Origin: a virus
Lineage: Duplodnaviria; Caudoviricetes
Virus record (IMG/VR): IMGVR_UViG_3300007513_000003
Strand: one strand, 5' to 3'
DNA length: 64,000 nt
Positions 43,637-64,000 of the stretch are shown here, in pieces. The position numbers were made by a program, and so were the translations under genes. The notes beneath the pieces were generated by a model. The model was given only the letters and a program-made list of their open reading frames with translations. It was not told where the DNA came from and made no database searches. Within the stretch, counting starts at the first letter, position 1, and each line of letters opens with the position of its first letter.

Positions 43637-43646
43637 TCCTATCTCC

Positions 43647-44945: not shown

Positions 44946-44978
44946 TTTTGTACTCGAGTTTTTACTTTCTATACTAAT

Positions 44979-45032
44979 ATTTTAGCATTTTTCGGGCGAT
45001 TTGTCACGAAAAATGGTGCTCTAAGTGCTTGA
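44979..45032 (-). promoter_or_regulatory. sigma70-type promoter with upstream IHF-consensus box
   Basis: AATCAAGCACTTA, 14 bp, GTGACA, 17 bp, TAAAAT. Confidence 0.65.
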
Positions 45033-45043
45033 TTTAAATGAGT

Positions 45044-45083
45044 CCCCCTGGAGTTATTCCAGCATTGCGCTGGCTCCAGGGGG
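45044..45083. terminator. long GC-rich stem-loop after the AAA ATPase gene
   Basis: CCCCCTGGAG/CTCCAGGGGG outer stem plus CCAGC/GCTGG inner stem; no clear U-tract. Confidence 0.5.
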
Positions 45084-45098
45084 TTCCCAAGTACTCTG

Positions 45099-46223
45099 TC
45101 AGCCCTCCATCGCTGAGATCACATACTTGCCGAAGCGTTTATGAAACTCGTCGAACGACTTGAGTTTGCCCGGCACTAGCGGGAGGTTATAGTTAGTGAG
45201 CGCCATCTTAGCACCCATTACCGTAACTTCTGTAAGGAAGTTATCCATCATAAAGCGGAAGAAGTTATCGCACATTTCATGCCACTCTTTGCCCGGATTG
45301 GCTTTCTTTGACTTCTTAAAAGCATCACGCAACTCGTAGCACATGGCAATCGTCAGTGAGTACATCGCTGACACTTCCTTTACCGTAAGGCTTTTCACCT
45401 TCCCTTCCAAAATGTCGGTTGGGTTAGGCAATTTGCCAGAATGTTTACGATGGGCGTTGAACTTGATCGCCATACCTTCGCCTACAGTACCGGCAACGAG
45501 ATCCGAAACTTCGCTTTCAGTCATTTCAGGATCGCCATCTTCATCCTGAAGCAATTCACTCACGAACACCCAGGATCTGGGAGTAGCAAAGGACCGCTCA
45601 TTTGAGCCCGGATCAAAGTTATAAAGGTCGTTTTTGGCGAATGTAAGGTAACCAAGAACGTCACGATGTATTTGATTTTCGATCGCCCAATCCTGCCAGG
45701 TCTCAAAATCAGCCGCCACTTCAACATGAACGAAGCGATTAGCCAACGGTGCTGGCATACGATAAGTGACACCACGGTCAGTCTCGCGGTTACCAGCCGC
45801 CACAATAACGACATTATCGGGCAGGTTGTAAGTACCAATTCTGCGGTTAAGCACCAACTGGTAAGCGGCCGCCTGAGTAGCCATGGGAGCAGAGTTCATC
45901 TCGTCCAAAAACAGGACGACGACATCATACTGGCTAGCCAATTCTTCTGAAGGAAGATCAACTGGCTGAGCCCATGACATATTGTTTTCTGTCTGGTTGT
46001 AGTAAGGAATACCACGGAGATCAGTAGGCTCCATAAGAGCCATACGCAGGTCCAACATGAGACCATTGACGTCATCGGCCAACTGACTCACGAGATCAGA
46101 CTTGCCAACTCCGGGAGGTCCCCAAAGGAATACGGGTCGCTTACGAAGCATCGCGCGACGAATCGCCTTCTTGGCCTCCTTCAGGGTATTAGTGCGAACT
46201 TCGCTTGTTTGATTTTTGCTCAT
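45099..46223 (-). CDS. MoxR-like AAA+ ATPase
   Basis: GPPGVGKS Walker A, LFLDE Walker B, AAGNR, PLANRF; ATG 46223 with AGGAG RBS. Confidence 0.9.
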   Translation of the reverse strand: MSKNQTSEVRTNTLKEAKKAIRRAMLRKRPVFLWGPPGVGKSDLVSQLADDVNGLMLDLRMALMEPTDLRGIPYYNQTENNMSWAQPVDLPSEELASQYDVVVLFLDEMNSAPMATQAAAYQLVLNRRIGTYNLPDNVVIVAAGNRETDRGVTYRMPAPLANRFVHVEVAADFETWQDWAIENQIHRDVLGYLTFAKNDLYNFDPGSNERSFATPRSWVFVSELLQDEDGDPEMTESEVSDLVAGTVGEGMAIKFNAHRKHSGKLPNPTDILEGKVKSLTVKEVSAMYSLTIAMCYELRDAFKKSKKANPGKEWHEMCDNFFRFMMDNFLTEVTVMGAKMALTNYNLPLVPGKLKSFDEFHKRFGKYVISAMEG

Positions 46224-46243
46224 TGTACTTGGGTCTCCTTGAG

Positions 46244-46606
46244 TTATCGTCTGAGGTATACGCAACCATGCTCGGTGATGACACTCTCACCACAGTCATC
46301 GCTGAAGATGTTGCCACGAACTCCGTTCTTGACAGGCGCTTTCCACGAGCCCTTAAGAATGTCGCCGTTGTTCATATCAACAAAACTGTGGACAGACTGG
46401 CTTCGGTCACGCAACACTTCATTGCCGTTGTCGTCGTAATCGCGACTGACTTTGATAACCTTCGCATAGCGATTACCAAAATTGACAGTGATGTAGTCTG
46501 ACGGAGAATGAGTAAATTTCATGCGCTCAAAATACTCATCTTGCAGTCTCTGGACCAAATCGCAATATTCATAGATTCGGTCATTCATTTCACGGGTGTT
46601 TTTCAT
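46244..46606 (-). CDS. hypothetical phage early protein
   Basis: GNRYAKV...VHSFVD..NGDILK.SWKAP..GVRGNI. Confidence 0.7.
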   Translation of the reverse strand: MKNTREMNDRIYEYCDLVQRLQDEYFERMKFTHSPSDYITVNFGNRYAKVIKVSRDYDDNGNEVLRDRSQSVHSFVDMNNGDILKGSWKAPVKNGVRGNIFSDDCGESVITEHGCVYLRR

Positions 46607-46643
46607 GTACTTGGGTTACCTTATTTCTTTAGCCTATACATAT

Positions 46644-46732
46644 ATTATATCGTATTTTGGTGCAAAAGTCTAATATTTTGAACACCTAAGTGCTTGAAAA
46701 ATAAGGGCTTTTTAGATAACGTAAATGCTTGA
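46644..46732 (-). promoter_or_regulatory. sigma70-type promoter with duplicated IHF-like box
   Basis: TTCAAGCACTTA, 14 bp, TAGACT, 17 bp, TATAAT; second box copy 35 bp further upstream within a ~26-bp direct repeat. Confidence 0.65.
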
Positions 46733-46749
46733 AAAATAAGGGTTTTTTT

Positions 46750-46780
46750 AAAAAGAAAGAAAAAGGGGCGATTCGCCCCT
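46750..46780 (-). terminator. Rho-independent terminator
   Basis: AGGGGCG-aat-CGCCCCT stem followed by a T-tract on the - strand, right after the HNH stop. Confidence 0.8.
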
Positions 46781-46785
46781 TCTTC

Positions 46786-47298
46786 CTAGCCTAGTTTTTC
46801 ATTAATTGCTTGAATAATATGCTCAGCATATTTTCCAGGATTCTCTAAATCAGAAATCATATCCAGAATACTAGCAACAAATTCTATATCTGTATTAGTG
46901 TCTCCTTTATTTTGATTTAGCCTGGCAGCCCTTATACGCATATTACTAGGATGGTCTGTGCCTCCTTCTGCTTTGGGTATAATATGATCCAATTGGGGAC
47001 TGTACATTTTGTCCTTGGTAATGGAATTCAATCCACTGCCCCAATCATATGAAAACCATTCGTCAATTACGTAATGACCTCTACTTTTTTCTAGATTATT
47101 CTCAATAAATTCTAATGCTTCTTCTTTAGTCCACTTATACTTTTGTTTATAAAATCCTAAAATTTTATGCTTGAAAAGTATATCGGGATCGTTAATATTA
47201 TCTATTAAGTAATCATAAAGGTCTTGAGTATAATACGTGTCATCATCATACTGAGTAGTAAAGACTCTGTTTTGTATTTGCTCATTTAACGTAGGCAT
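46786..47298 (-). CDS. HNH endonuclease-domain protein
   Basis: LDHIIPKAEGGTDHPSNM......N..KG. Confidence 0.8.
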   Translation of the reverse strand: MPTLNEQIQNRVFTTQYDDDTYYTQDLYDYLIDNINDPDILFKHKILGFYKQKYKWTKEEALEFIENNLEKSRGHYVIDEWFSYDWGSGLNSITKDKMYSPQLDHIIPKAEGGTDHPSNMRIRAARLNQNKGDTNTDIEFVASILDMISDLENPGKYAEHIIQAINEKLG

Positions 47299-47299
47299 A

Positions 47300-48520
47300 T
47301 TAGGCCGCCTTTTGTAAGGGCATTACGCGAAAGTCTTTAAGGTACTTGTCGGCAATTACCTTGTTGTTAAATGTAATCGGCTTCCATTTAACATGCGGTG
47401 CAGTAGTTTTTATCAACTTATGCAATGCGCCTGCAATAATAGAGGGCTCTGGAATGTTTAGTTCTTCTCCAACTCCCTCCTTTTTGGCACGTTTGGCATC
47501 AAGGTGCAAACCATTCCTACTAGGAAGGTACTTATGGTTAATGGCTTGCCCTATTTCATAGTCTATTTGATAGATGTCTAAATCAAGTCCTTCTTGATTC
47601 TTAATAAACTCACAAATGCCCCAAATATTAGGACTAGCAATAGGACTACTGCTAAGGGCGCCAACGTGGATTCTTACAGCACGTTCAAATATTTCCTGGC
47701 CATAATCATCATAGTGACGTGACATATTGAACACACCTGTACACTCTTTTGATTTTGCTTTTTCTCCACCTTTCTCTATCATCTTAGCCTGTACACGCTT
47801 TAAAATGTTATAGATGTTCCAAGCAGTTGTGTACGCTGGTTTAGTATCTTCTAAAGCCTGTACCTCATCCTTTGCGCCTTCTTCTATTAAAGATTTAACT
47901 GCTTGTACCATGTTGCGGTATCTATCGTAATGGCTAGCCACAAGGCTGTTTAGATTAACTGCGGCATATTGCCATACATCAACACTACGGCGCTCACTCT
48001 CTTCGTACTCTAAAGGAATGTCACGAACGCCTAATATCACGCATGACAGATAACGATGTTGTGCATCATTAAGATAAAATAGATCTTCTTTTTTACTATA
48101 CCGCGCGGTTCCCATAAGGACCCATTTGGGGTCAAATACAAAAAGAATATCTAATAGCAAATGGCGTAGTTGTATACCGCGTTGAACTTGGTTATTCTTT
48201 ACTACTTTTATGACTGGCTTAAAGGCATCAGGATGCCTTTTTAATCCTTTTTCTATTAAGTCATTAGAGGTTAACCAATCTAAATCAATACCAAGCAATG
48301 CCTGTGAGTTCTTCAGTACTGTTAGAATTTGATTGGCAATTTGAAATAGGGATGGATCATCGCCTAATCCGCTTGTGTCTACATATTCAGGTACTTTACT
48401 ACAAAGTTCAATTCTTTCAGAAGTAGTAAGTTTGCTGATATGCTTACGCTTTGTCTTCGGTCCGAAGACCTGAAGTAGGTCTTCGCCGAAAATCTCTTTC
48501 GGATCTTTGTCTGGATACAT
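47300..48520 (-). CDS. ParB-like/DUF6551-type protein
   Basis: VQR.....H....FDP....YLNDAQHR (DGQHR-like) motif; AAGGAG RBS. Confidence 0.55.
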   Translation of the reverse strand: MYPDKDPKEIFGEDLLQVFGPKTKRKHISKLTTSERIELCSKVPEYVDTSGLGDDPSLFQIANQILTVLKNSQALLGIDLDWLTSNDLIEKGLKRHPDAFKPVIKVVKNNQVQRGIQLRHLLLDILFVFDPKWVLMGTARYSKKEDLFYLNDAQHRYLSCVILGVRDIPLEYEESERRSVDVWQYAAVNLNSLVASHYDRYRNMVQAVKSLIEEGAKDEVQALEDTKPAYTTAWNIYNILKRVQAKMIEKGGEKAKSKECTGVFNMSRHYDDYGQEIFERAVRIHVGALSSSPIASPNIWGICEFIKNQEGLDLDIYQIDYEIGQAINHKYLPSRNGLHLDAKRAKKEGVGEELNIPEPSIIAGALHKLIKTTAPHVKWKPITFNNKVIADKYLKDFRVMPLQKAA

Positions 48521-48552
48521 GATACTGTCTCCTTAATAATCGATAACGGTCA

Positions 48553-48648
48553 TCAACCATCCGGGTGCTTTACCGGTGCCTGGCTGCGTTTCTTTATAAA
48601 GGGGATCCTTAGGATGTATCTTGGAAACAGTTTAGAATTGTATGCCAT
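48553..48648 (-). CDS. 31-aa small ORF upstream of the ParB-like gene
   Basis: AGGAG RBS; MAYNSKLFPRYILRIPFIKKRSQAPVKHPDG; read by hand. Confidence 0.35.
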   Translation of the reverse strand: MAYNSKLFPRYILRIPFIKKRSQAPVKHPDG

Positions 48649-48734
48649 CTTTTTTTCTCCTGTGGAATGATGATTTTGTTTACAACTTTGTTTACATGAT
48701 GTCTTCGGTCTAAGCCAACATCAGTTCAGGAGTA

Positions 48735-48753
48735 AGGGGGGCAGCGCCCCCCT
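48735..48753 (-). terminator. GC-rich hairpin after the HTH gene
   Basis: AGGGGGGC-agc-GCCCCCCT; weak U-tract. Confidence 0.55.
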
Positions 48754-48776
48754 GTGTCCTGTGTGGTTAGTAATGA

Positions 48777-49022
48777 TTACTGACCAGCAAGTGCGCGGTA
48801 ACCAGCGGCTACAACTGCGCGAGAAGGAGTACCCATGCGATACTTGTTGACAACACGACCTTTTGTGTCGGTGTGTGCATTCAAGTAAATCGAGTGACCT
48901 TTGAATCGAAGATTCTGAATGGTCGCACCCGGGTTACCAACTCCCCAACGAGCAGAGATCTGCGCCGCTGAAAGTTCCTGTCCTTCTTGAAGTGCGTTTA
49001 GTACTTTATCAGTATTGCTCAT
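48777..49022 (-). CDS. small winged-helix DNA-binding protein
   Basis: VLNALQEGQELSAAQISARWGVGNPGATIQNLR..GH.I HTH-like pattern. Confidence 0.65.
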   Translation of the reverse strand: MSNTDKVLNALQEGQELSAAQISARWGVGNPGATIQNLRFKGHSIYLNAHTDTKGRVVNKYRMGTPSRAVVAAGYRALAGQ

Positions 49023-49081
49023 TTTACATTTTCCTTGGGCTCGAGCCCTATTTACTATAGCAGAAAAGGTCTGCCAACCTC

Positions 49082-49147
49082 TTTCGCGATATCGCGAAAT
49101 TCTTTACAACTATATATAATGATATACTCACTACCATTATTTGTCAA
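49082..49147 (-). promoter_or_regulatory. sigma70 promoter with downstream 18-bp palindrome (candidate operator)
   Basis: TTGACA (49142-49147), 17 bp, TATCAT; TTTCGCGATATCGCGAAA at 49082-49099. Confidence 0.65.
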
Positions 49148-49166
49148 CCTTTTTTACTAACTTTTT

Positions 49167-49194
49167 GATTGCCCGGGATTAATCCCGGGCAATC
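49167..49194. repeat. perfect 28-bp palindrome (hairpin/terminator)
   Basis: GATTGCCCGGGATTAATCCCGGGCAATC. Confidence 0.8.
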
Positions 49195-49208
49195 TGTGTG
49201 GTTTCTAC

Positions 49209-49388
49209 TTAGTGTATTGTGACTTCCTCGTCTTCGTCGTGTCCTGTTAAAACTTGTACAAGGCTTTCTAGAGATTTTATCTCATTTTGTTGCAGCTCTA
49301 TGAGCAAGGCTTGTGTGTCTGCTAACCTTCCCCATACAATGCTTAATTCTGCTAATTGCTTTTGTCTTTTTTGTCTTTTAGTAGACAT
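49209..49388 (-). CDS. hypothetical protein (59 aa)
   Basis: GGAG RBS; below the track threshold; promoter TTGATT-17-TATATT at 49421-49449. Confidence 0.6.
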   Translation of the reverse strand: MSTKRQKRQKQLAELSIVWGRLADTQALLIELQQNEIKSLESLVQVLTGHDEDEEVTIH

Positions 49389-49492
49389 TTACGCTCCGTG
49401 TTGTGTTTATCGTATATAATAATATAGCAAAGACAATAACAGAAATCAAGCATTTCTACATAAAATAAACTTATAGCAATTATAAATTCTTT

Positions 49493-49738
49493 TTATGAAT
49501 TATTTTCAACTATTTCTACATCAGCGAAAGGCACTAGAAAAACCCAGCCTTTTTCATGGTCTTTTATTTCATAGACTTGAGTCTCAAGATCCATGGCCAT
49601 GATCATTCCTACTCGGTTTAGGGATTTTTCACCTGCTACTGGAAGATCGGATGTCGAATATGATCCGCCCGGGCGTCCAAACTGGTCCACAGGAAACTTC
49701 TTCTTGTACGTACATTTTGGTGTGTCATACATGCTCAT
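49493..49738 (-). CDS. hypothetical protein
   Basis: ATG 49738 preferred. Confidence 0.55.
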   Translation of the reverse strand: MSMYDTPKCTYKKKFPVDQFGRPGGSYSTSDLPVAGEKSLNRVGMIMAMDLETQVYEIKDHEKGWVFLVPFADVEIVENNS

Positions 49739-49922
49739 CTTGTTTTCTTTCAGACTTGTTAGAAAATTGGCCAAAGTCACTGGGTGAATCTATGCGAGCG
49801 TAGCCCAGCGTCTCGATAAACCACATCATCGCATCCGGATGAAGTGAGCATACTCGAGCACCATTCTCGTCATAGAACCCAGGACCTTGGTAATCGGTCA
49901 ACATTGTTAAATTAGTTCTCAT
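49725..49922 (-). CDS. hypothetical protein
   Basis: AAGGAG RBS. Confidence 0.6.
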   Translation of the reverse strand: MRTNLTMLTDYQGPGFYDENGARVCSLHPDAMMWFIETLGYARIDSPSDFGQFSNKSERKQDEHV

Positions 49923-49933
49923 TGTGCTTCTCC

Positions 49934-50104
49934 TTAATCTATATGTCCTGTGATGGCCAAAAGAATTATTACACCGATCGCAATTCCGAATACAGCAAAA
50001 GATTTAACGAGTCCTTTGAAAAACCCTTCGGGATCGTTTACTAGATAGTGGATATTAATACCAACACTTAACACTGGCACCACTAACAAAATGAATAACC
50101 ACAT
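49934..50104 (-). CDS. small two-helix membrane protein (56 aa)
   Basis: Read by hand; two hydrophobic stretches; fills the gap. Confidence 0.5.
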   Translation of the reverse strand: MWLFILLVVPVLSVGINIHYLVNDPEGFFKGLVKSFAVFGIAIGVIILLAITGHID

Positions 50105-50108
50105 TATG

Positions 50109-50438
50109 CTATGCCTCTACTGATAAACGAGTGCTAGGCACTCTCCATAAGCCGTGTTGCATACAATCCACAACAACCCTAGAGCGTTTTATTTCTCGTA
50201 CTACTCCAGACATTGTAGGGGGGACCTTTCCTCTATTAGTTTTGCGTCCTGTGTCAACAGTAACCTTATCTCCTACTTTTAGAGATTTTATTAATGTGTT
50301 ACCTTTCCGTCTGCGTTCTCGAATAATATTTTGATGAATCATATCCAACTCATCCATGGATAGATCTCGAAAATCAGTGTTCATGATTCGTTTGAACGCC
50401 GAACTCATTTCGTCATGATTGACATGAATATTATACAT
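50109..50438 (-). CDS. hypothetical protein (SH3/KOW-like C-terminus)
   Basis: LKVGDKVTV...GVVREIKRSRVVV pattern. Confidence 0.6.
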   Translation of the reverse strand: MYNIHVNHDEMSSAFKRIMNTDFRDLSMDELDMIHQNIIRERRRKGNTLIKSLKVGDKVTVDTGRKTNRGKVPPTMSGVVREIKRSRVVVDCMQHGLWRVPSTRLSVEA

Positions 50439-50439
50439 A

Positions 50440-50628
50440 TTACCACCTATCCTCTTTCCAGGTATAATAATTAAGACGCTTCTGCACCGTTTCGCCGGCG
50501 AAATTTTCTGAGATATATCTGTTAAACAGTTTTGTAGTCATTTCAGGGCAATCGTCTGCTATCCAGATGCGATCCATTTCAAAGTAAAGATCAACATCAG
50601 ACATTTTCTTTGGATTAATCTTGCTCAT
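50440..50628 (-). CDS. hypothetical protein
   Basis: ATG 50628 preferred. Confidence 0.5.
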   Translation of the reverse strand: MSKINPKKMSDVDLYFEMDRIWIADDCPEMTTKLFNRYISENFAGETVQKRLNYYTWKEDRW

Positions 50629-50694
50629 GGCTGTGTCAGTGTTGCCCACAAAGTCAGAACTAAGCCTGCCATAATAAACAACTCGATAATAACA

Positions 50695-51105
50695 TCAACC
50701 ATTGGTTAATACCTTTCGTTGTCGTTTAACCATATCGTTGATGTAGCCTTCTACACACGATTCGTGGCCACCGACGCGCCAATGGTAGTATCCCTTCATC
50801 GCGTCGTCAGATTTTTTCGGTTTCCAGTCGTATATAGTAGCGACTAGTTTATGCTTCCAATATTCTGGTTCAACATCATCTCCTGTAACGCTCATCTCTA
50901 CACGAAACTCGTTATGTACGTTTTGATATCCTCGCGAAGCGCGGATCCGCGCATCCTCAAATGAGTATTCGGGGTCTTTGTCCATACCTACATTAAAAAT
51001 AAAGAGAGATCGAATCTCCTCGTAGGTTGCGACAACTGCCCCTTGATAGGTTGTCAGGTGAATGTTAACGTCATCACCCAATGCTGTGATAGTGTAGTCA
51101 ACCAT
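50695..51105 (-). CDS. hypothetical protein
   Basis: 136-aa ORF, tightly packed. Confidence 0.6.
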   Translation of the reverse strand: MVDYTITALGDDVNIHLTTYQGAVVATYEEIRSLFIFNVGMDKDPEYSFEDARIRASRGYQNVHNEFRVEMSVTGDDVEPEYWKHKLVATIYDWKPKKSDDAMKGYYHWRVGGHESCVEGYINDMVKRQRKVLTNG

Positions 51106-51106
51106 T

Positions 51107-51397
51107 TTAAAAATACCTCACGCGAGTATTGTCAGTGTTTTCGAATTTATCCGCTTTGTTGCGCCGTATACCGGGCAATGCTCCTTTCGGAACTTCGTTT
51201 TCAGTCAAGTAGCCAAACCCCTTGTAATTGCCAGAGTCCATAAGGACTTGCTCAACCATCAACATCACGCCTTGGCGCCAGTAGCGATCAACAGGAACGT
51301 ATTTGCTTTCTACCTCGCTCCAACGCATAGATGCTTCAAGGGCTCGATTTGCCATACCCTTAACTTTCTCAACTTCGATTGTCTTTCGATGTGCCAT
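51107..51397 (-). CDS. hypothetical protein
   Basis: 96-aa ORF, TAATG overlap. Confidence 0.65.
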   Translation of the reverse strand: MAHRKTIEVEKVKGMANRALEASMRWSEVESKYVPVDRYWRQGVMLMVEQVLMDSGNYKGFGYLTENEVPKGALPGIRRNKADKFENTDNTRVRYF

Positions 51398-51963
51398 TAC
51401 GAGTTCAACTCCTGAATCATATCATACGCTTCTTGTCGCGAAAGTCCCATATCGCGATGGTCCTTCTTGGTGATACAAAACAAGGCCCACAACTGCTTCT
51501 TGGTCGCTTCGCCTTCGAGAGCAGTCCACTTCTTTACGGACTTCTTCTTGGCGGCCTTCTTTTTCTTGGATGACGCCTTCTTTACTCGATCGCTCGCACC
51601 AGGCTCGTAAACATACGGCTGGTTCCATTTGCCGAGATTAATGTCAACATACCAACCAACATCAAAGTAGTCTGTCATAATGTCGGAGTTATCGTAGTTA
51701 TCGATGTTGAGCAGATCGTTGGCCTTGGTCAAAAACTCCTTGGCTTTGCCAGTCCAATGACTATCGATCCAGTATACGTTTACCTGGTTATGGGTATGCT
51801 CTGCGGTTCTGGAATTTTCAAAGTCGATGGCACCAGACTTGATGGTAAGGACCACTGTGCTGTGATTTTGGACGGACAATGAACCTTTGAGTCCGTACTC
51901 CTTCAGCAGTTTTCGCATTGCGGGTTGAACTGCTTTCTTCCGTTCTTGATTATACCATGCCAT
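51397..51963 (-). CDS. hypothetical phage early protein
   Basis: GGAGG RBS; NYDNSDIMTDYFDVGWY motif; TAATG overlaps. Confidence 0.7.
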   Translation of the reverse strand: MAWYNQERKKAVQPAMRKLLKEYGLKGSLSVQNHSTVVLTIKSGAIDFENSRTAEHTHNQVNVYWIDSHWTGKAKEFLTKANDLLNIDNYDNSDIMTDYFDVGWYVDINLGKWNQPYVYEPGASDRVKKASSKKKKAAKKKSVKKWTALEGEATKKQLWALFCITKKDHRDMGLSRQEAYDMIQELNS

Positions 51964-52454
51964 TACGCGGCCTCCGCACGAAATTCTTCGAAAGTTTTGG
52001 TTTCACCGTCCTCATAAACATAAAGGACAGGATTGTATTTGTCCGCTTCACCAGCAACGATGGTCTTGGACGACCGCATTCCAATGACGCCTTCAGCGTC
52101 ATCGGACCAACTGTAGTCCCGAGCGCGGAACTGTTCAGCATAAAAGCCGATATCAGTTTCGACCAGGATCCAAGGAGTTTCCCACTCCTCGCCAACCGGC
52201 TCGCACTCGTCGAGCAAGTTACAACCGATCACATACTCCTCAAAGGCGGGATTGTCCCGGACGGTAACCGCGTCACCAACACGATCAGCAAGACCGCCGG
52301 GTTTAACAGCCTCAATGGCTTCCATGGGTGACAGGTTTTCAACCACATAAAGTTCGCCACCCTTGGCTTTCCAGTATTGAGGACATTCACCCTGGCCGTC
52401 CCAATCATGGGCGCCGTAGTTTTCGAGAATCTGTGTAGTAATAACGATTTTCAT
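51963..52454 (-). CDS. hypothetical protein
   Basis: ATG 52454 downstream of a promoter; TQILENYGAHDWDG.GECPQYWKAKGG. Confidence 0.65.
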   Translation of the reverse strand: MKIVITTQILENYGAHDWDGQGECPQYWKAKGGELYVVENLSPMEAIEAVKPGGLADRVGDAVTVRDNPAFEEYVIGCNLLDECEPVGEEWETPWILVETDIGFYAEQFRARDYSWSDDAEGVIGMRSSKTIVAGEADKYNPVLYVYEDGETKTFEEFRAEAA

Positions 52455-56950: not shown

Positions 56951-57337
56951 TTATTTATATTCTTTTTTCCCGTTTTGTATGTCTCGCATTTGTATATTAA
57001 TATTGCTACCTACGACGTCTTCATCATATGTTTCCATAGCAATTTGTCTACATAAGTCTTGAAACCATTGATCCACCACTTCTTCGTCTGTTTCACCAGT
57101 TAATCCGTGACCACGTAACATTTTAACGAATGGGTCGTTCCAATCTAATTCAAACGCACCATTAAGTGGGTTCTCACTATTAATTTCTACATCCACAATG
57201 GTAAACCATGGTTCACCCTTTTTTGTCGCTTTCTCCTTTGGCGTCAATTTTTTCTTTGGTTCTTTAACTGGTTCTGGGGTTGGCTCAGAACCAAATGCAT
57301 TTTTTAGTTTTTCAAATATATCCATTATGTTCCCCAT
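56951..57337 (-). CDS. hypothetical phage protein
   Basis: EKAT..GEPW...G.FELDWN..F...L...G..GETDEEVVDQWF. Confidence 0.65.
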   Translation of the reverse strand: MGNIMDIFEKLKNAFGSEPTPEPVKEPKKKLTPKEKATKKGEPWFTIVDVEINSENPLNGAFELDWNDPFVKMLRGHGLTGETDEEVVDQWFQDLCRQIAMETYDEDVVGSNINIQMRDIQNGKKEYK

Positions 57338-58209
57338 GCATTACCAAACAGATCAGAGTGTAGTCTTGGACTATAACGTAATCCATGTTTCATAACTGCT
57401 TCTGCGACAATGCGTGTATTCTTTTTATAATCATCATATAAACCACCTACAGGCATACAATAAACAGGACAGTCAACGCCTGCTTCTTTATATACTGCAA
57501 TGGCTTTTTCTACTTCATCCATGCTTTCTTCGCTATCAATAACAAATTTAAAATACATGTCTGAGAAAGGCATTTTATAATATGCGGCCGCCACATCAGG
57601 CTTAATTGCTTTTCCCCATGGTTCGCCGCTTGCTGATAGTTTAGGAGAGCACGACCAGGTAACATATGGTCTGATAGGAGTCCTGTAATTAGCAAAATCA
57701 CCGGTCCAATTTCGCCAGTCGTAAAACCATTCAAAAATTTTGTCAGTTAAATTTCTAGTAGTATTAGTCTCGAATGTAACATTTTTTAAATCCTGCATAC
57801 GATCATGTGCAAATAAATCAGGATATATTTTTTGCCACATCATAGGCTCACCGCCCGTAATAACTAAATGTATGTCTTGCCCATTGGGCATTATCCAACT
57901 GCCATTGGGCGTTTTTGCCAATAGATCATCTACTAATTTGTCTAAGTCTACATCTGTTGCTAAATATTTAAATCGTGGATCCCAACTTGCATAACTGTCA
58001 CATCCTGTGCTAACTAATGGCAAATCATCAAAGTGTGTATAATCAGCGGCAAAAACGCCGAGTCGCTCTTTGCTTAACTCACCGCGTGGCATTCCAAAAC
58101 CTTGGCATTTTAAATTACAACCAAACAGTCGCAAGAAAACAGACGGCACGCCTGTAAACTTACCCTCTCCTTGTAAACTATAAAATATTTCTGTATATCT
58201 AATCTTCAT
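57325..58209 (-). CDS. queE: 7-carboxy-7-deazaguanine synthase (radical SAM)
   Basis: EIFYSLQGEG..TG.P.VFLR.FGCN..C (insert) CDS, ITGGEP, FETN, SPKL, R.H..L.G. Confidence 0.92.
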   Translation of the reverse strand: MKIRYTEIFYSLQGEGKFTGVPSVFLRLFGCNLKCQGFGMPRGELSKERLGVFAADYTHFDDLPLVSTGCDSYASWDPRFKYLATDVDLDKLVDDLLAKTPNGSWIMPNGQDIHLVITGGEPMMWQKIYPDLFAHDRMQDLKNVTFETNTTRNLTDKIFEWFYDWRNWTGDFANYRTPIRPYVTWSCSPKLSASGEPWGKAIKPDVAAAYYKMPFSDMYFKFVIDSEESMDEVEKAIAVYKEAGVDCPVYCMPVGGLYDDYKKNTRIVAEAVMKHGLRYSPRLHSDLFGNAWGT

Positions 58210-58534
58210 CGGGTTTATTTCCTTGCCATTTATCGCCAAATAATTTATGTAGTGGTATTGCTTGATGTTCTTCCTTAGTCATACCCCAACTAGGCCCCTT
58301 TAACATTCGCTGTATTTTAATTTGCATATCGTCGTATTCTTCTTTCCATTCTTGCTTTTCTTCTTCTAATCTTTTTGGAAGTTTATCTAATATTATAACA
58401 ATTTCTTTAAGATTGTCAAGTGTATTACGTTCAGTTCGTGATATGTATACACTGTGTCGAGGTATTTTAAAATTATCGAAGCATTTGTCTATTAGGTCTT
58501 TTGCCTTATTAATGTCATCTTGCATAACTCTCAA
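58199..58534 (-). CDS. hypothetical protein
   Basis: 111-aa helical ORF, overlaps on both sides. Confidence 0.55.
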   Translation of the reverse strand: MRVMQDDINKAKDLIDKCFDNFKIPRHSVYISRTERNTLDNLKEIVIILDKLPKRLEEEKQEWKEEYDDMQIKIQRMLKGPSWGMTKEEHQAIPLHKLFGDKWQGNKPDED

Positions 58535-59717
58535 TGCCTCCTTCCCTGTGTATGTCTAACGTTAAGCAATGCAATCCACCATCCCAAAAGAATCTATGCC
58601 TAAACGGAGTTACTATAGGCTCTACATTATGCTTTCTAAACCATTTAAATAATTCTTTATTTTCGGTTAGGCACAGTACAGTTTCAGGATTTACCATCAA
58701 TACATTAACGTCCCAAATTGTTTCTTCACAAAATCCTACCCACTCGCTAAACCATTTATCTACGTAGTCAATAAGTTCGTCGTTGTGTTCTTCGCCTGGA
58801 ATCCACCATTTTCCTTGTACTTTTTCTCTAACTTCTAAGAATGGTGACATATTAGACCATTGGGCGTCTGGCAAGTAGAATACGTCCCAATTTGGAAAAT
58901 ACTTTTTAAACTGTAGTGCTTCGCCATTTGATATAAATGCGCCGGGTTTTATTGGTGCGTATATACCATCCGAATGCCCGTCGTTAAAAGCAGTTATAAT
59001 ATTATAGTTGTCTTTAAAATGATTTTTAAAGTATTTGTAAACATGCGGCCGCAATCCATCTAATATTATTGTATCCCCAAGCCGCACAATATTTGGTCCC
59101 TCATTCAAATAATCGTCTTTCCACGGGAATTCAATAATATTTGCGCCTTGTTCTTTTAATTCTTTGAATAATGGTTCATAAAATATAGCAAGGGCCCGGC
59201 TGGCACCTCCCTGTGGATATAATGGATTAATAGTATTTATACAAGCCGGGTTTACTTCTGGCATGCTGTACGGTCTTAACTTATAAAAAGTTTCTCCTAC
59301 TATGATTTGATCGTCCCGTGGAAATAATGGCGGTCGGGTGAGTGCGCCTGGATCTGCATATATATCGTAGTTTGCTAAAAAACTTTCGACACCTTTCCTA
59401 TCAATTAATCTTGGAAAATAATTTAATACTTCATCAATAATAATGTTTAAGTTTTCATCAACACAAGCTCCACCAACTTTGTATATATTATATACTTGAT
59501 CAAAATCAAAAAGTTTCGGGCGTTTAACAGTTACGCCATAACTTTCTAATACTTCTTTAATGTTCTCTAAATCTTCTATGGTTTCTTCAGTAATTTGTTG
59601 CAGAATATTTTTTACTTTAATATTATCAACGTAGTCAAAGAACTCCGGACGATAGCAATCGCCTAACCAACATTCTTTTAGTGGTTGGAATCCTGTGTTA
59701 CAATTGATTACACCCAT
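58515..59717 (-). CDS. amidinotransferase (AGAT/StrB1, pentein superfamily)
   Basis: FQPLKEC.LG, PRD, EGP, HSDG, C-terminal DGGLHC.TLD..R catalytic Cys motif. Confidence 0.85.
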   Translation of the reverse strand: MGVINCNTGFQPLKECWLGDCYRPEFFDYVDNIKVKNILQQITEETIEDLENIKEVLESYGVTVKRPKLFDFDQVYNIYKVGGACVDENLNIIIDEVLNYFPRLIDRKGVESFLANYDIYADPGALTRPPLFPRDDQIIVGETFYKLRPYSMPEVNPACINTINPLYPQGGASRALAIFYEPLFKELKEQGANIIEFPWKDDYLNEGPNIVRLGDTIILDGLRPHVYKYFKNHFKDNYNIITAFNDGHSDGIYAPIKPGAFISNGEALQFKKYFPNWDVFYLPDAQWSNMSPFLEVREKVQGKWWIPGEEHNDELIDYVDKWFSEWVGFCEETIWDVNVLMVNPETVLCLTENKELFKWFRKHNVEPIVTPFRHRFFWDGGLHCLTLDIHREGGIESYAR

Positions 59718-60184
59718 CCATTAAACCCTGCTTCGGGGTTATGATAGGTTGAACTGTTCTTGTCATTTTCTCTTGCTTCTACACTAATAACCCATGCTCT
59801 GCCACCTGTTCTTTCGCGTAACCATCCATCAGCATAATTACAGATACGCATAGCAGTGCCTTCCATACCTGGCCCTTCTTCTTGTACAATTAATTTACAT
59901 ACACCCGCATCGTGTAGCATTTGGAATGTTTCCATATATGGGTCATCGTGATCAATAACAAACGTATGGTCATAATTCTCTTCTAACCATCTCTTTAGTT
60001 CTTTCAAGTCACTATAATCAACAAGAAATCCTTCTTTTGTCATAGTGTGTGCGCCAAACGTAAAATGAAAACTACGGCTATAGCCGTGTATCATAGCGCA
60101 GTTTCCGTCATGCTTGTGTTGTCTATGAGCACACGGAAAGTTATAAAATGTTTTTGTAGATGTAAATTCAGGTACTCCGCTCAT
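59708..60184 (-). CDS. queD: 6-carboxytetrahydropterin synthase
   Basis: AHRQ..H.G.C..IHGY, VDY..LK, DH, E......V.V.E..KNS. Confidence 0.9.
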   Translation of the reverse strand: MSGVPEFTSTKTFYNFPCAHRQHKHDGNCAMIHGYSRSFHFTFGAHTMTKEGFLVDYSDLKELKRWLEENYDHTFVIDHDDPYMETFQMLHDAGVCKLIVQEEGPGMEGTAMRICNYADGWLRERTGGRAWVISVEARENDKNSSTYHNPEAGFNGWV

Positions 60185-60292
60185 TTATTTTTCTCCTTGC
60201 CATAAAAGATTATAGCCTAATACAATGGTGTGCATAATGACTAGATTGCGTACTAGCGTCTTATCAACACCTTCTAAATATTTTGATAACAT
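60185..60292 (-). pseudogene. probable remnant of a VUT/YhhQ-like deazaguanine-precursor transporter gene
   Basis: Strong GAGGAGG RBS, 35 aa MLSKYLEGVDKTLVRNLVIMHTIV..., resembling the LxxxHxxV first helix of YhhQ; stop abuts the queD ATG. Confidence 0.4.
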
Positions 60293-60326
60293 TCATTTCC
60301 TCCTCAGTTGATCTTTAATGTTTTTA

Positions 60327-60869
60327 TTACCAATTTTTATCACTCCACCAGTTTTCCCACGGAAAAACAATCCACGAGGGATCTTCAATTTTATTAATCA
60401 CTAATGAGGTGTAAGAGATTTCTGTAAATCTACTCTCCTCATTATTAACTAGCGAAGCAAAACGAACATTAGAGCCTACAACTTTGTCCCAAGACTTAAC
60501 ACCCGGTATCGGCGCATTCATCCAATCATTTACAATCCAATCAAATGTAGCACCAGAATCATTTATATCATCAACAACAAGTATATTTTTAGGTTCGATT
60601 ACTTCTTCATGACTAAAACTAGTTTTAGTTATGCCTGACGCGTCTGCCGCCATTTCTAAACTAGATTGTAGATTGTGTCCATCTCGTAATCTAACATCTA
60701 ATGTATGTAACGGTGTTTCTAAATAATGACTCAACATTGTAGCAGGAATTAGTCCTCCCCTTGTAATACCTACAATGTATTCAGGCCGCCAATTACCAGC
60801 ATAAATCTGTTGAGTAATATCTAAAACTTGCGACTTAATGTCTTGTGTATTTAGATAGATCATTTTCAT
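60327..60869 (-). CDS. type I phosphoribosyltransferase (Gpt/Hpt-like)
   Basis: VGITRGGLIPA..LSH, LVVDDINDSGAT PRPP motif, WIVFPWE. Confidence 0.88.
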   Translation of the reverse strand: MKMIYLNTQDIKSQVLDITQQIYAGNWRPEYIVGITRGGLIPATMLSHYLETPLHTLDVRLRDGHNLQSSLEMAADASGITKTSFSHEEVIEPKNILVVDDINDSGATFDWIVNDWMNAPIPGVKSWDKVVGSNVRFASLVNNEESRFTEISYTSLVINKIEDPSWIVFPWENWWSDKNW

Positions 60870-60886
60870 ATATTTAAGTCTCCTTG

Positions 60887-61573
60887 CTATCGCGGAGCAA
60901 ATTCTTGCTGAAGTTTGATATTGTCAAAGAACTCTTTTTTAGTAGAAGCATCTTCTTTAAATGATCCTTTAAGCACTGTTGTTTGTGTTAGACTAGAGTG
61001 TGCCATGACACCCCTATTTTCTACGCAACCATGCGTTGCTTGTACGTAAACACCTACATTACTAGAACCTGTTGCTTTAATAATTTCATGTGCTATGTCG
61101 TTGGCAAGTTCTTCTTGTAGTGTTCCCCGTCTGGCACACCATTGTGCTATACGTGTATATTTGGATAATCCTATAAGTGTGTCTGCCGCGATAATGCCAA
61201 TATATGCAACTCCGGTTACTGGTTGAAAATGATGGGAGCAAACGCTACGTATTTCACTTCTTACAACAAGCATGCCTTCGTAACCATCCTCTACATGATT
61301 AGGAAATGCGGTTGCATTGGGCATGTTATCAAAACGGCCGCTCATAAGTTCTCTTATATACATTTTTGCTAAACGACGCGGCGTGTCAATAGAGTTAGGA
61401 TCACTATGCCTATCAATAAGCAGAGTGTCCAATACTCCTTCAAACTTTTCCGTTAGTTCATCAATGAGCAGATCTTTTTCTTCTTCTTCGATAAATTCTG
61501 ATATATTGTCTCCTGCCCAAAAACGTCCACCGTGTTCTAGCATTCTGTTTCTAATTGTTTTACTAATGCTCAT
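60887..61573 (-). CDS. folE: GTP cyclohydrolase I
   Basis: DTPRRLAK, SVCSHHF, GLSKY.R, LQE, HGCVENRG; GGAG RBS before ATG 61573. Confidence 0.95.
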   Translation of the reverse strand: MSISKTIRNRMLEHGGRFWAGDNISEFIEEEEKDLLIDELTEKFEGVLDTLLIDRHSDPNSIDTPRRLAKMYIRELMSGRFDNMPNATAFPNHVEDGYEGMLVVRSEIRSVCSHHFQPVTGVAYIGIIAADTLIGLSKYTRIAQWCARRGTLQEELANDIAHEIIKATGSSNVGVYVQATHGCVENRGVMAHSSLTQTTVLKGSFKEDASTKKEFFDNIKLQQEFAPR

Positions 61574-61594
61574 ATATTTCTCCAAGTACTATAT

Positions 61595-61623
61595 ATTATA
61601 AAGATTATTTAGGCAAATGTCAA
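61595..61623 (-). promoter_or_regulatory. consensus sigma70 promoter for folE-PRTase-queD-amidinotransferase-queE
   Basis: TTGACA, 17 bp, TATAAT. Confidence 0.8.
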
Positions 61624-61630
61624 TTATTTG

Positions 61631-62830
61631 TTAAAATTTAGACTCCGCAACATGGTCTCTATATCTATTTCCATCACGGCGCCACTGTTCTCCGTTGCCC
61701 TCCATAATATCACATATGCGATCAATAGTACCATTCGTCCAATCGGATATTCTTCCCATGTTAAAACTTGGCATTCTTAGAGCAGTATCAATTTTTTCAA
61801 TAGCAGAGTGCATACTCCAAGGAATATACAAACGATCTGCATCATTAGCAAAAGTTTCAGGGAAACTGCGATATGCAGGATATACTACATTACACCCTAG
61901 TGTATCCGCTTCACTTACAGTATTGCTTACCCAATCTTGTAGCGCACAATTGAATAATACCTTACTGTCGTTAACGATATTATAATAATCATTCTTATTT
62001 AGGTCAGTATAAATTTTTAGAACTCCTTCTGCTTGTAATTTCAATGCACGATCTAAATATTTTTGATTGTTACTGCGTAAAGGCCCGCCGCTTAGAACAG
62101 CGAACTCAACATCAGTTATACTATCTACATATTGATTTTGGTGCTTTAGATGGCCAGTTACTGTTTCAACAATATCCATAAAGAAGTCAGGTTGTTTTTC
62201 TTGATCAAATCTTGCCGCAAATACAACACGATTAGATCTTTCACTCCACTTCTTTACCTTATTTCCTACTCTTTCAAGAACTTCACTTTTGCCAAAACTC
62301 AATCCTGATATGTTGTATATAGGAGCAGTCCAGTTAGCAATACGCATATGGGCAACCATTTCTTCATTAGTAGCCAATACTGTAGCAAACTCATTAACCA
62401 TTTGCTCATACAAACTCATCCACTTGGACATACCCCATACATGGACAAAGTCATCAGGATCTACCGCCTGGGCAAGACAACGGACATAAACTTTGGGGCG
62501 TTGATTTTCGGGAATCTGGTTCATAATATACGGAAGTGATTCTATACCAGGTTGAAACATATCCTCAAAGAAGATAGCATCCTCCCCTGTCACAGTTCCA
62601 TCACGCATCATTTGGACTAGGTTCATCATTTGGCTCATACCAAAATAACTGCGTCCATGTGCGTCTAACACTTGTCCTACAGATATTGCTTTAGTATTGT
62701 CAATAGTCTCACCGGGCACAACTATATAGTCTATGCCTCTGCGTTTAAATACACGCTCACTCCATTCTTGTAATTGTAATGTATATCTTCCTTCATAAGG
62801 CTCAAGTCCCATGTATATTAATTTACGCAT
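61631..62830 (-). CDS. GT-B fold glycosyltransferase
   Basis: FAARFDQEKQPDFF and DWVSNTVSEA (D/E-x7-E) donor-binding motif, YPAYRSFPE. Confidence 0.75.
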   Translation of the reverse strand: MRKLIYMGLEPYEGRYTLQLQEWSERVFKRRGIDYIVVPGETIDNTKAISVGQVLDAHGRSYFGMSQMMNLVQMMRDGTVTGEDAIFFEDMFQPGIESLPYIMNQIPENQRPKVYVRCLAQAVDPDDFVHVWGMSKWMSLYEQMVNEFATVLATNEEMVAHMRIANWTAPIYNISGLSFGKSEVLERVGNKVKKWSERSNRVVFAARFDQEKQPDFFMDIVETVTGHLKHQNQYVDSITDVEFAVLSGGPLRSNNQKYLDRALKLQAEGVLKIYTDLNKNDYYNIVNDSKVLFNCALQDWVSNTVSEADTLGCNVVYPAYRSFPETFANDADRLYIPWSMHSAIEKIDTALRMPSFNMGRISDWTNGTIDRICDIMEGNGEQWRRDGNRYRDHVAESKF

Positions 62831-62919
62831 TGTGTTTTCCTTTAGTAATTAAGTAGATGGGCGTTACTGTAAGAACCATGCTATTAGCACAGTAAACATC
62901 GCCGTTGTTGGTATTACCT

Positions 62920-63068
62920 CTAAACAGTAACTCCATCTATGTTCGTTGTCTTAAGACCAGTTACATACCATTCAGGTGCAGGTCTTGCTTTGTTCCAGGC
63001 GGCAAATCTAGATTTTTCGCCCAAATAAAAATTTCTATTTGCATCTCTGCAAGTATAAACCTATTCAT
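62920..63068 (-). pseudogene. out-of-frame remnant resembling a pyrimidine-dimer glycosylase-like family gene
   Basis: MNRFIL start in one frame; NRNFYLGEKSRFAAWNKARPAPEWY in another. Confidence 0.35.
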
Positions 63069-63478
63069 TGATAAAGCCTTTCTATATCAACCTCATCACA
63101 AAATTCTCCATATTGTATTTCTACAATATGCAATGGTGTATAAGAAGGGTTCATGATTTGATGCCATTCTCCGGCTGGCACGTGGTAAGATTCATGCTTA
63201 TTTAATATAATAGTTCTAGCATCACGTTCTATAAAATTATGCCGATTGCTAAGATCTCCTTTGCTACAAGATTCAGTATAGTTTGGTGCTAATATAAGTC
63301 TTGCAACACCAGATTCTACAATCCAAAACTCATTTCTATGTTCATGACGTTGGAAACTCATACAGGAGTTAGGATTTACGACTAGCTCCTTAACCTTCAT
63401 ACTTTTGAAGTTAGCAAGAACATCATAAACTCCCCAATCTCGTTGGATATCAAATTTATTGTTGTCTTTGTTCTGCAT
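63065..63478 (-). CDS. cupin, mannose-6-phosphate isomerase type II C-terminal-like
   Basis: RDWG.Y.VL...VKELVV.P...SFQRH.HR.E.W.V..G ... EIQYG....E.DIER; ATG 63478 preferred. Confidence 0.8.
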   Translation of the reverse strand: MQNKDNNKFDIQRDWGVYDVLANFKSMKVKELVVNPNSCMSFQRHEHRNEFWIVESGVARLILAPNYTESCSKGDLSNRHNFIERDARTIILNKHESYHVPAGEWHQIMNPSYTPLHIVEIQYGEFCDEVDIERLYQ

Positions 63479-63677
63479 TGCTTTTTTTATAAGGTTTTCT
63501 AAAATGTGGATACCCTGGCCAATATCTTGCCTTGCCAGTCTCCTTCCAGCGTAAAAAGTCGCTATATGGACTCTTTTCCTTATATAAATGTGCCTCATCA
63601 AAGACTCGTCCAAATTCTCGACAGAAGTCACGATATGCATCCAAATCATCAAAGATTTGTTTCACTGCTTTTTTCAT
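63456..63677 (-). CDS. hypothetical protein
   Basis: 73 aa; IFDDLDAYRDFCREFG..FDEAHLY. Confidence 0.6.
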   Translation of the reverse strand: MKKAVKQIFDDLDAYRDFCREFGRVFDEAHLYKEKSPYSDFLRWKETGKARYWPGYPHFRKPYKKSNAEQRQQ

Positions 63678-63698
63678 AACAGTACCTTGTTATTGTTG

Positions 63699-63998
63699 TT
63701 AGTTAATGTTTTTATAAGCGATTACAGGATAGACGCAATGGCATCCATTCTCGTCATCTTCGCTTACGTCTATTTGGACTTCTCTGCCTTTATAGCGTTC
63801 GTTGATTGCTAGGTAGAGATCGTCTGCTATCATTTCACAGGACTTGTAGTCTAATTGTAAAGTGCCTGTGGAATAAAGATTTTCCAACCAACGTTTAAAT
63901 TGAATAAATTCAATATCTCTGTCGTCGTGGAATACTTGTATAGTAACCTTAAAGTGGAATGTGTGGCGATGTGGATATCCGAGAAAGGATACATCATA
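63699..63998 (-). CDS. second T-fold (QueD/PTPS-like) protein, 5' truncated
   Basis: Frame open to the window edge: HRHTFHFKV...DRDIEFIQFKR...SCEMIA....V.V.EDDENG. Confidence 0.6.
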   Translation of the reverse strand, partial: YDVSFLGYPHRHTFHFKVTIQVFHDDRDIEFIQFKRWLENLYSTGTLQLDYKSCEMIADDLYLAINERYKGREVQIDVSEDDENGCHCVYPVIAYKNIN

Positions 63999-64000
63999 CT

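Follow-up and report, generated by a model that had tools for sequence, protein, structure and literature searches.

The last 6.7 kb of the 64,000-nucleotide stretch of DNA analysed here (the window), which comes from IMG/VR virus record IMGVR_UViG_3300007513_000003, raise the question of which DNA base their genes would make. This locus (57325-64000) encodes the 7-deazaguanine enzymes FolE, QueD, and QueE together with a phosphoribosyltransferase (PRTase), an amidinotransferase-family protein (AmT), a glycosyltransferase (GT), and a cupin, and the original prediction had proposed from it a possible new hypermodified base. Judged by its sequence, the locus is a truncated copy of the known DpdL-type 7-deazaguanine DNA-modification system described in 2023, and we consider it fairly probable that it represents the larger part of a QueC-independent module of this type, carried together with accessory genes by a T4-like giant marine phage. 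Bases 180-64179 of a 111,813-bp IMG/VR viral contig, read as their reverse complement, make up the window, and hence its last 6.7 kb are the very start of the contig, with only 179 nt of contig remaining past window position 64000. CheckV completeness of the contig was 31%, implying a genome of roughly 350 kb. Every gene of the region lies on the minus strand.

The type of the module was recognized from a second T-fold gene (63699-63998, 5' end open in the window; phrog_17812, 1.1e-27). The window holds the C-terminal 99 amino acids (aa) of the product, and the full gene (148 aa) is present in the contig, where it extends to contig base 26, 154 nt past the window end. DpdL has been defined as a paralogue of QueD in which CxxxHGH is changed to LxxxHRHxF, and was proposed as the decarboxylase that converts 7-carboxy-7-deazaguanine (CDG) to 7-deazaguanine (Cui, Hutinet et al., NAR 2023, PMC10516641). 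The same paper reports that G is fully replaced by 7-deazaguanine (dDG) in the DNA of Cellulophaga phage phiST, and that a DpdL-type system was predicted in Acidovorax phage ACP17 (PMC10516641). The window protein contains LGYPHRHTF, which fits the DpdL signature; phiST DpdL belongs to the same PHROG (3.9e-69) and aligns with it throughout, and the DpdLs of ACP17, PA5oct, and BUCT-ZZ01 also align with it. The locus is thus a QueC-independent, DpdL-type module. Consistent with this assignment, QueC (PF06508) was found neither in the contig, a search that covers about 31% of this phage's genome, nor in a 322-kb, 90%-complete relative, whereas controls gave matches. Upstream in the pathway, FolE, a GTP cyclohydrolase I, is encoded at 60887-61585 (PF01227, 1.8e-40; phrog_2197, 2.7e-45), and a QueD-like 6-carboxytetrahydropterin synthase at 59708-60184 (PF01242, 1.2e-20; phrog_2389, 1.9e-34). 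Alignment demonstrated that this QueD retains the catalytic Cys (CxxxHGY), as do the QueDs of phiST, ACP17, and BUCT-ZZ01. The QueE-like radical SAM CDG synthase (57325-58239; phrog_2076, 3.3e-55) matches five NCBIfam QueE models at its N-terminus, and its QGEG, TGGEP, ETN, and SPK motifs and three Cys residues are invariant with respect to the QueEs of phage 9g and phiST. Its radical SAM motif is split, with C-x3-C followed by a 34-residue insert and the third Cys, whereas phage 9g QueE has the canonical CxxxCxxC; the insert between the second and third cluster Cys is common to the BUCT-ZZ01 and PA5oct QueEs.

A DNA-modification system of this kind is expected to include a DpdA-family DNA transglycosylase, and the first searches for one gave nothing. 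PF01702, PF23859, phiST DpdA3 (as protein and as phrog_20335), phrog_19058, and phrog_10773 were used as queries, and neither the HMM nor the sequence searches, aimed at TGT, DpdA, and DpdA3, found a match in the contig, the 322-kb relative, or the complete genome of BUCT-ZZ01. Six-frame searches with PF01702 and PF23859 were also blank for phiST and ACP17, which are published DpdA carriers, and since the DpdA genes of these two phages were missed too, such searches are weak tests. An initial conclusion from them that there is no DpdA was dropped for this reason, and because a protein of roughly 500 aa encoded upstream proved to be TGT-like. The gene for this protein lies 2.8 kb upstream of DpdL in all nine clade relatives with enough flanking sequence (1450-2937 in relative L004), and its homologues include PA5oct gp168 and proteins of contigs L020 and L022. 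The motifs DSGGFQ, VLQG, H(Y/F)LGxG, and (S/Y)DCA are invariant in the family, and we take these, in their order and spacing, to be hallmarks of TGT-family enzymes such as that of Z. mobilis. ACP17 gp123 bears the same motif set and was matched by hhalign with a probability of 87% (E 4e-6, 179 columns); the match to phiST DpdA3 was weaker (29-56%). Among language-model look-alikes of the protein, TGT-named clusters scored 0.93 (206 shared features) and DpdA-named clusters 0.89. The protein had at first been taken for a portal, from its size and a protease-like neighbour, which was ruled out by the motif set and hhalign. From these sequence features it is very probably a DpdA-type transglycosylase. 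The contig begins 25 nt before DpdL and therefore contains no DpdA-like gene, so that the apparent lack of a transglycosylase is most likely an artefact of truncation and detection. A 7Fe-type ferredoxin (Fer4 plus DUF3470) is encoded directly upstream of DpdL in all clade relatives (L004:3900-4241, L009:4901-5239), another occurs in the L020-type module, and a role as dedicated reductant for QueE is plausible.

These results bear on several statements of the original prediction. Profile matches placed folE, queD, queE, the PRTase, AmT, GT, and cupin genes, as well as the second T-fold gene, where it had reported them. Its statement that the window has neither dpdA/tgt nor queC agrees with the contig searches, but its suggestion that they could lie beyond position 64000 finds hardly any room in the contig. 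It had named CDG as the product of FolE, QueD, and QueE. The pathway is predicted to run past CDG: DpdL has been published as a candidate decarboxylase of CDG, so that the expected core base is dDG, which is already known.

If the core base is known, the accessory genes become the point of interest, and their neighbourhoods in other phages are informative. The order ferredoxin-DpdL-cupin-GT-FolE-PRTase-QueD-AmT-p111-QueE is kept in 11 related viral contigs. Beyond this clade, we examined 80 viral contigs encoding the closest relatives of the GT, counting loci with at least 6 kb of flank. A DpdA-like gene was present in 74/74 loci and DpdL in 73/74, at medians of 3.2 and 0.7 kb upstream of the GT start, respectively; downstream of it, FolE was present in 50 of 51 loci (median 3.5 kb), the PRTase in 33/51 (5.0 kb), and QueE in 26/51 (7.1 kb). 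Chance cannot plausibly account for this arrangement. DpdL and the GT remain paired at GT identities of 36% and 29%, in contigs of other phage types, one of which has a family A polymerase, and the pair is found in the isolates ACP17 (gp124-gp125), PA5oct (gp167-gp166), and BUCT-ZZ01. Rhizobium phage RHph_I1_18 and Sinorhizobium phage Phosso are further cultured carriers of the DpdA-like/DpdL/GT set. In the family-A-polymerase contig, the DpdL domain (LSYPHRHMF) forms the N-terminal part of a 395-aa protein (L032:5769-6956), which may be DpdL fused to another domain and is encoded directly upstream of a 29%-identical GT. PA5oct, of the Pseudomonas jumbo phages (Wroclawvirus), encodes DpdA-like gp168, GT gp167, DpdL gp166, PRT-like gp163, and QueE gp162 in the same order, but it has neither AmT nor cupin, and its GT is 20% identical to that of the window. 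DNA of PA5oct withstands a number of restriction enzymes whose sites contain G, in a study that does not report the chemical nature of the base (PMC12191111); our literature search yielded no other wet-lab data on a GT-bearing carrier. In public metagenomes, the GT fills about 8000 or more clusters at 90% identity, as does the DpdA-like protein. Taken together, a long divergent DpdA-like protein, a constant GT4-like GT, and a frequent PRTase make up a widespread variant of the module that is unexplained in the literature, to which the cupin and AmT are extra in this clade.

The GT (61631-62830) is an accessory gene firmly tied to the pathway. An AlphaFold model built on 48 homologues (pLDDT 93.6, pTM 0.91) predicts a GT-B fold closest to those of the retaining GT4 enzymes MshA, BshA, glycogen synthase, PimA, and LmbT, the first four being top Foldseek matches (probability 1.00, E 5e-12, TM about 0.6). 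Glycos_transf_1 matched 31 of the 48 family members (best 4.5e-10), the window GT itself reaching 22.3 bits against a cut-off of 26.4, and sequence searches of the GT against the PDB returned noise or weak GT4 matches only. T-even phages offer a comparison, as their alpha- and beta-GTs, which sugar-coat a modified base, are likewise GT-B enzymes tied to base replacement, with alleles and sugar-nucleotide helpers that vary by lineage; variation of this sort among DNA-modifying GTs is expected in an arms race. Unlike in the T-even case, the fold search ranked GT4 small-molecule enzymes (MshA, BshA) first, the T4 DNA glucosyltransferases not being among the top matches, the modified base is an analogue of a purine and offers no hydroxymethyl handle, and DNA is only a putative substrate.

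The sequence of the GT suggests that it has been exchanged. Its identity is 71% with the GT that adjoins DpdL in BUCT-ZZ01, a Synechococcus phage, and about 78% with thousands of proteins from metagenomes, but just 20% with the GT of its clade relatives, whose flanking genes are 50-98% identical. In these relatives, a gene matching phrog_624 (2e-41; 180 aa in L004) stands intact between the cupin and the GT. Searching with the L004 protein by tblastn, we found a stub of this phrog_624 gene (DenV-like 'DNA binding protein') at 62965-63057 (contig 1123-1215; 34 aa, 56% identity), within the 234-nt spacer between cupin and GT. The stub marks the recombination scar where a distant GT allele of the marine/BUCT-ZZ01 type replaced the cassette of the clade. 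That the slot was refilled by a member of the same family argues that the slot matters.

The neighbouring cupin (63065-63652) resembles type II phosphomannose isomerase (PF01050, 7.3e-27; 94.3 bits against a cut-off of 23.6) and also matches Cupin_2, with the motif QRHEHRNEFW. It corresponds to the C-terminal part only of bifunctional guanylyltransferase/phosphomannose isomerase (GMP/PMI) models, the guanylyltransferase half being absent, and each of the 11 clade relatives has it, 50-62% identical, at this place in the order. In other lineages, the GT is flanked by a variable set that includes an NDP-sugar epimerase/dehydratase, a cupin, a cytidylyltransferase-like gene, and UDP-glucose dehydrogenase.

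The PRTase (60327-60869) is a type I, purine (6-oxopurine-like) enzyme (PF00156, 4.7e-13; 49.2 bits against a cut-off of 26.3) with the acidic loop VVDDINDSG for binding phosphoribosyl pyrophosphate (PRPP). XGPRT was its best NCBIfam match, but XGPRT, HGPRT, and all equivalogs scored far below their cut-offs. BUCT-ZZ01, PA5oct (gp163), and marine phages have homologues within their deazaguanine clusters, and phiST has one (33% identity) beside its ribonucleotide reductase (RNR) gene. It is more likely that the PRTase salvages guanine or makes a nucleotide than that it decorates the base. Of these two roles, salvage would leave no part of the module idle, the YhhQ-type base transporter of the relatives included, and is favoured by the invariance of the DpdA-like gene; the kinase-like and MazG genes in the phiST cluster keep the nucleotide route alive. 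The kinase-like gene of phiST, CGPG_00066 (L011:10382-10861), lies between DpdA3 and DpdL and beside MazG, and encodes a P-loop protein matching AAA_18 (9e-07). Such kinase-like and MazG genes are typical of dNTP-pool manipulation, and the available text of the phiST paper leaves them undiscussed.

The window phage itself has lost the transporter. The spacer between PRTase and QueD contains a 35-codon stub (60185-60292), the first 24 codons of which are identical to those of a 206-aa open reading frame (ORF) of L004 that matches PF02592 (Vut_1, 5.8e-21); the gene is intact in L004 and L008. The stub is thus the 5' remnant of a Vut_1/YhhQ-type transporter of 7-deazaguanine precursors.

The locus further encodes AmT (58515-59717, 400 aa). 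As a single sequence it matched HsvA at 8e-10. A profile built from 25 homologues gave matches to human AGAT (8e-19, two stretches that together span most of the protein), HsvA, SxtG, and StrB1. Cys384 (HC..LD), His248 and Asp250 (GHxDG), and Arg134-Asp135 are invariant in the 25 homologues and align with the AGAT residues, so that AmT has in common with AGAT, StrB1, HsvA, and SxtG the catalytic triad of Cys, His, and Asp as well as the Arg-Asp pair that binds the substrate. This profile match and the conserved catalytic residues indicate a real amidinotransferase-family enzyme. It differs from the AGAT family in a phage-specific invariant insert (WW.PGEE...W..WVG..EE), and we know of no AGAT-family member in a deazapurine or DNA-modification pathway. 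Among the modules compared, AmT is confined to the clade of the window phage. At six of the 80 loci selected by the GT, a different amidinotransferase, 352 aa long and of more canonical type (hhalign 99.5%), is encoded inside the module, between sugar-tailoring genes and the PRTase; that another lineage has it there suggests that such an enzyme was recruited a second time, independently. At one such locus (L097:10164-14813), the interval between GT and PRTase contains an NDP-sugar epimerase/dehydratase, a radical SAM/SPASM enzyme, two ORFs, and the canonical-type amidinotransferase, and looks like a sugar-tailoring sub-cluster. DpdL was present in 8 of 15 large AmT-bearing contigs, both near-complete ones among them, a co-occurrence that does not discriminate because a baseline of AmT-less phages is lacking. 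Altogether, a role of AmT in tailoring the base or its sugar appears unlikely.

The original prediction of a 7-deazaguanine locus with non-canonical partners is borne out, and the GT adjoins DpdL in every lineage examined. The prediction had suggested checking the conservation of gene order and had held that extra genes not syntenic with que genes elsewhere would speak against it; as gene order is conserved, that objection falls away for the GT and PRTase. Of its proposal that the extra enzymes extend the pathway, the part concerning the GT is plausible, but the PRTase more likely acts in salvage or in making a nucleotide, and the link of AmT to the base is weak to moderate.

From these data, the following scheme can be proposed. 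By homology, FolE, QueD, and QueE convert GTP to CDG, and DpdL would strip off the carboxyl group to give 7-deazaguanine, as suggested in the literature. A divergent TGT/DpdA-like transglycosylase, as found in the relatives, would then exchange 7-deazaguanine for guanine in phage DNA; its gene in the window phage would lie just past the broken contig end, preceded by that of a ferredoxin able to reduce QueE. The PRTase would most simply recycle the guanine set free by the exchange into GMP, from which GTP is made again for FolE, or might make a deazaguanine nucleotide. With a probability that we place somewhat below even, the GT would glycosylate the deazaguanine or DNA that contains it, accompanied by the mannose-6-phosphate-isomerase-like cupin; AmT would be an optional tailoring enzyme whose action on the base or its sugar we doubt. 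The purpose would be to shield phage DNA from host nucleases. A full version of this scheme, in which the GT places a sugar (mannose-derived here) on 7-deazaguanine in DNA or its precursor and AmT perhaps amidinates the sugar, is possible but rather doubtful. In a sub-variant, AmT may transfer the amidino group straight to C7 of 7-deazaguanine, and archaeosine-type 2'-deoxyarchaeosine (dG+) would then be reached without QueC. A glycosylated and/or amidinated base, as the original prediction envisaged, is compatible with the gene content, which motivates the sugar fairly well and the amidino group weakly.

The closest characterized system, the DpdL-type dDG system of phiST, predicted also in ACP17, is alike in FolE, a CxxxHGY QueD, QueE, and DpdL, and in the absence of QueC (PMC10516641). 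phiST shares the PRTase homologue mentioned above, and the relatives of the window phage have the divergent TGT-like gene close to DpdL. The transglycosylase of these relatives is roughly 500 aa long, whereas phiST DpdA3 has 259 aa, and phrog_20335 was not found here. In addition, the window module has a GT4-like GT, a phosphomannose-isomerase-like cupin, and AmT, none of which occurs in phiST, and its cluster is without the MazG and kinase-like genes that phiST has. The published account of the phiST pathway discusses neither the PRTase nor any GT (PMC10516641).

Several observations weigh against the scheme in which this module decorates DNA with more than dDG, or against its individual steps. 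The authors' own assays for the proposed decarboxylase activity of DpdL failed (PMC10516641). The DpdA-like assignment rests on motifs, one hhalign match, and language-model features; the roughly 500-aa family was missed by PF01702, PF23859, and a PDB profile search, and hhalign against phage 9g DpdA1 found nothing. The fold of the GT indicates no particular acceptor. 7-Deazaguanine has no hydroxyl group, which leaves the point of sugar attachment unexplained. The cupin occurs in just one of the 80 other loci, and most AmT relatives (about 35% identity, in T4-like and giant phages) adjoin baseplate or RNR genes rather than que genes, for which reason the AmT link cannot be rated higher. The last three points suit another explanation, namely plain dDG with passengers, in which the GT, cupin, and AmT of a mosaic region serve virion or host glycan, guanidino, or polyamine metabolism: phiST attains 100% dDG without any GT, the cupin is nearly private to the clade, and the base offers no obvious sugar acceptor. 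We regard this explanation as rather unlikely, as the GT stands beside DpdL in nearly all loci across identities of 79% to 20% and across unrelated phage types, the replaced GT gave way to a member of the same family in the same slot, and two different amidinotransferase lineages were recruited into the module.

Another possibility is a pre-replicative nucleotide route, in which the PRTase would join CDG or 7-deazaguanine to PRPP in the manner of TubE, DpdL would decarboxylate the base or nucleotide, and 7-deaza-GMP would be reduced, phosphorylated, and incorporated by the polymerase, leaving a lesser or different role to the DpdA-like protein. The precedent is the tubercidin pathway of Streptomyces tubercidicus (TubC/TubA/TubB/TubE/TubF), which likewise combines GTP cyclohydrolase I, 6-carboxytetrahydropterin (CPH4) synthase, CDG synthase, a purine PRTase, and a decarboxylase, and leads to a 7-deazaguanine nucleotide; in this FolE-QueD-QueE cluster, TubE is a proven CDG:PRPP transferase acting before the decarboxylase (PMC6112128). 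The pathway differs in using a UbiD decarboxylase (a T-fold protein here), in yielding a free nucleoside antibiotic, and in having neither a TGT-like gene nor a GT. In at least four lineages, DpdL modules come with a PRTase; the phiST cluster combines an NMP-kinase-like P-loop gene with a MazG pyrophosphatase, its PRTase lying beside RNR; and MazG is found near L020-type loci. The 7-amido-7-deazaguanine (ADG) nucleoside was seen in CP220-infected cells, as cited in PMC10516641, and complete replacement of G is easier to explain by this route. On the other hand, the TGT/DpdA-like gene, superfluous for a pure nucleotide route, is invariant in the loci compared, the PRTase was detected in only about two thirds of them, and its likeness to TubE is a functional analogy only. 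By tblastn, homologues of MazG, NMP-kinase, and sugar enzymes were absent near the locus in the 111-kb contig, and the lack of MazG or a kinase there counts against this route, although it says little, since the contig is only about 31% of the genome. We therefore consider incorporation as a nucleotide to be unlikely.

The modification might also be directed to RNA, with the TGT-like enzyme, DpdL, and GT placing a glycosylated 7-deazaguanine in phage or host tRNA, by analogy with mannosyl-queuosine, which is made by the GT4-family enzyme QTMAN. The TGT superfamily is mainly tRNA-directed, a bacterial QTMAN cluster resembles the GT in its language-model features (rank 48, score 0.97), and the phosphomannose-isomerase-like cupin would supply GDP-mannose. 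However, PF12038 (QTMAN_N) matched neither the window GT nor any of the 48 family members, phiST as the nearest characterized system places the base in DNA, PA5oct DNA is itself restriction-resistant, and the module stands among replication genes in several lineages, which makes an RNA target very improbable. The DpdL-type DNA-modification module with accessory genes thus remains our preferred reading.

Sugar-bearing DNA bases are known for pyrimidines, such as 5-hydroxymethylcytosine (hmC) in T-even phages, base J, and 5-hydroxymethyluracil (hmU) derivatives. In our literature search, no report was found of a sugar-bearing purine or deazapurine in DNA. If the product of this module is glycosylated, it would give natural DNA its first purine analogue with a sugar attached. 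Since the GT and the DpdA-like protein have more than 8000 clusters apiece, this product would also be among the commonest DNA hypermodifications of marine and freshwater giant phages, and, the module being so common, a major, unrecognized form of DNA in the sea and lakes. Such a product would affect sequencing bias, evasion of restriction and CRISPR, and phage-host dynamics. The roughly 500-aa TGT-like protein escapes the Pfam TGT/DpdA models, so surveys based on DpdA miss such phages. The recurrent PRTase raises the question of whether deazaguanine enters DNA before or after replication, for which the literature says 'after'. AmT, if it takes part, would be a new kind of tailoring enzyme in DNA modification.

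The remaining genes of the locus are small. A conserved 73-aa ORF (63456-63677) overlaps the N-terminus of the cupin as called, and homologous ORFs occur at the matching spot in relatives L004 (4718-4969) and L009. The TTG starts called for the cupin, FolE, p111, and QueE are probably over-extended; the true start of the cupin is perhaps the ATG at 63478, and that of QueE is likely the ATG at 58209. The 111-aa ORF p111 (58199-58534) keeps its position between AmT and QueE in all 11 clade relatives, at 35-51% identity. PHROG and Pfam scans gave no useful match for the 73-aa ORF, p111, or the downstream genes, and a megablast search of the locus against 50,697 phage records matched nothing. Overlaps of 10-20 nt connect QueD/AmT, AmT/p111, p111/QueE, and QueE/p128, the AmT start overlapping the QueD stop by 10 nt. 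Elsewhere in the window, G+C is 0.43-0.46 at 42000-52000, compared with about 0.35 in the rest. T4-late-promoter-like TATAAATA motifs were observed on the minus strand at 59241 and 56959, one within the AmT gene and the other a few bases before the ATG of a downstream 199-aa gene.

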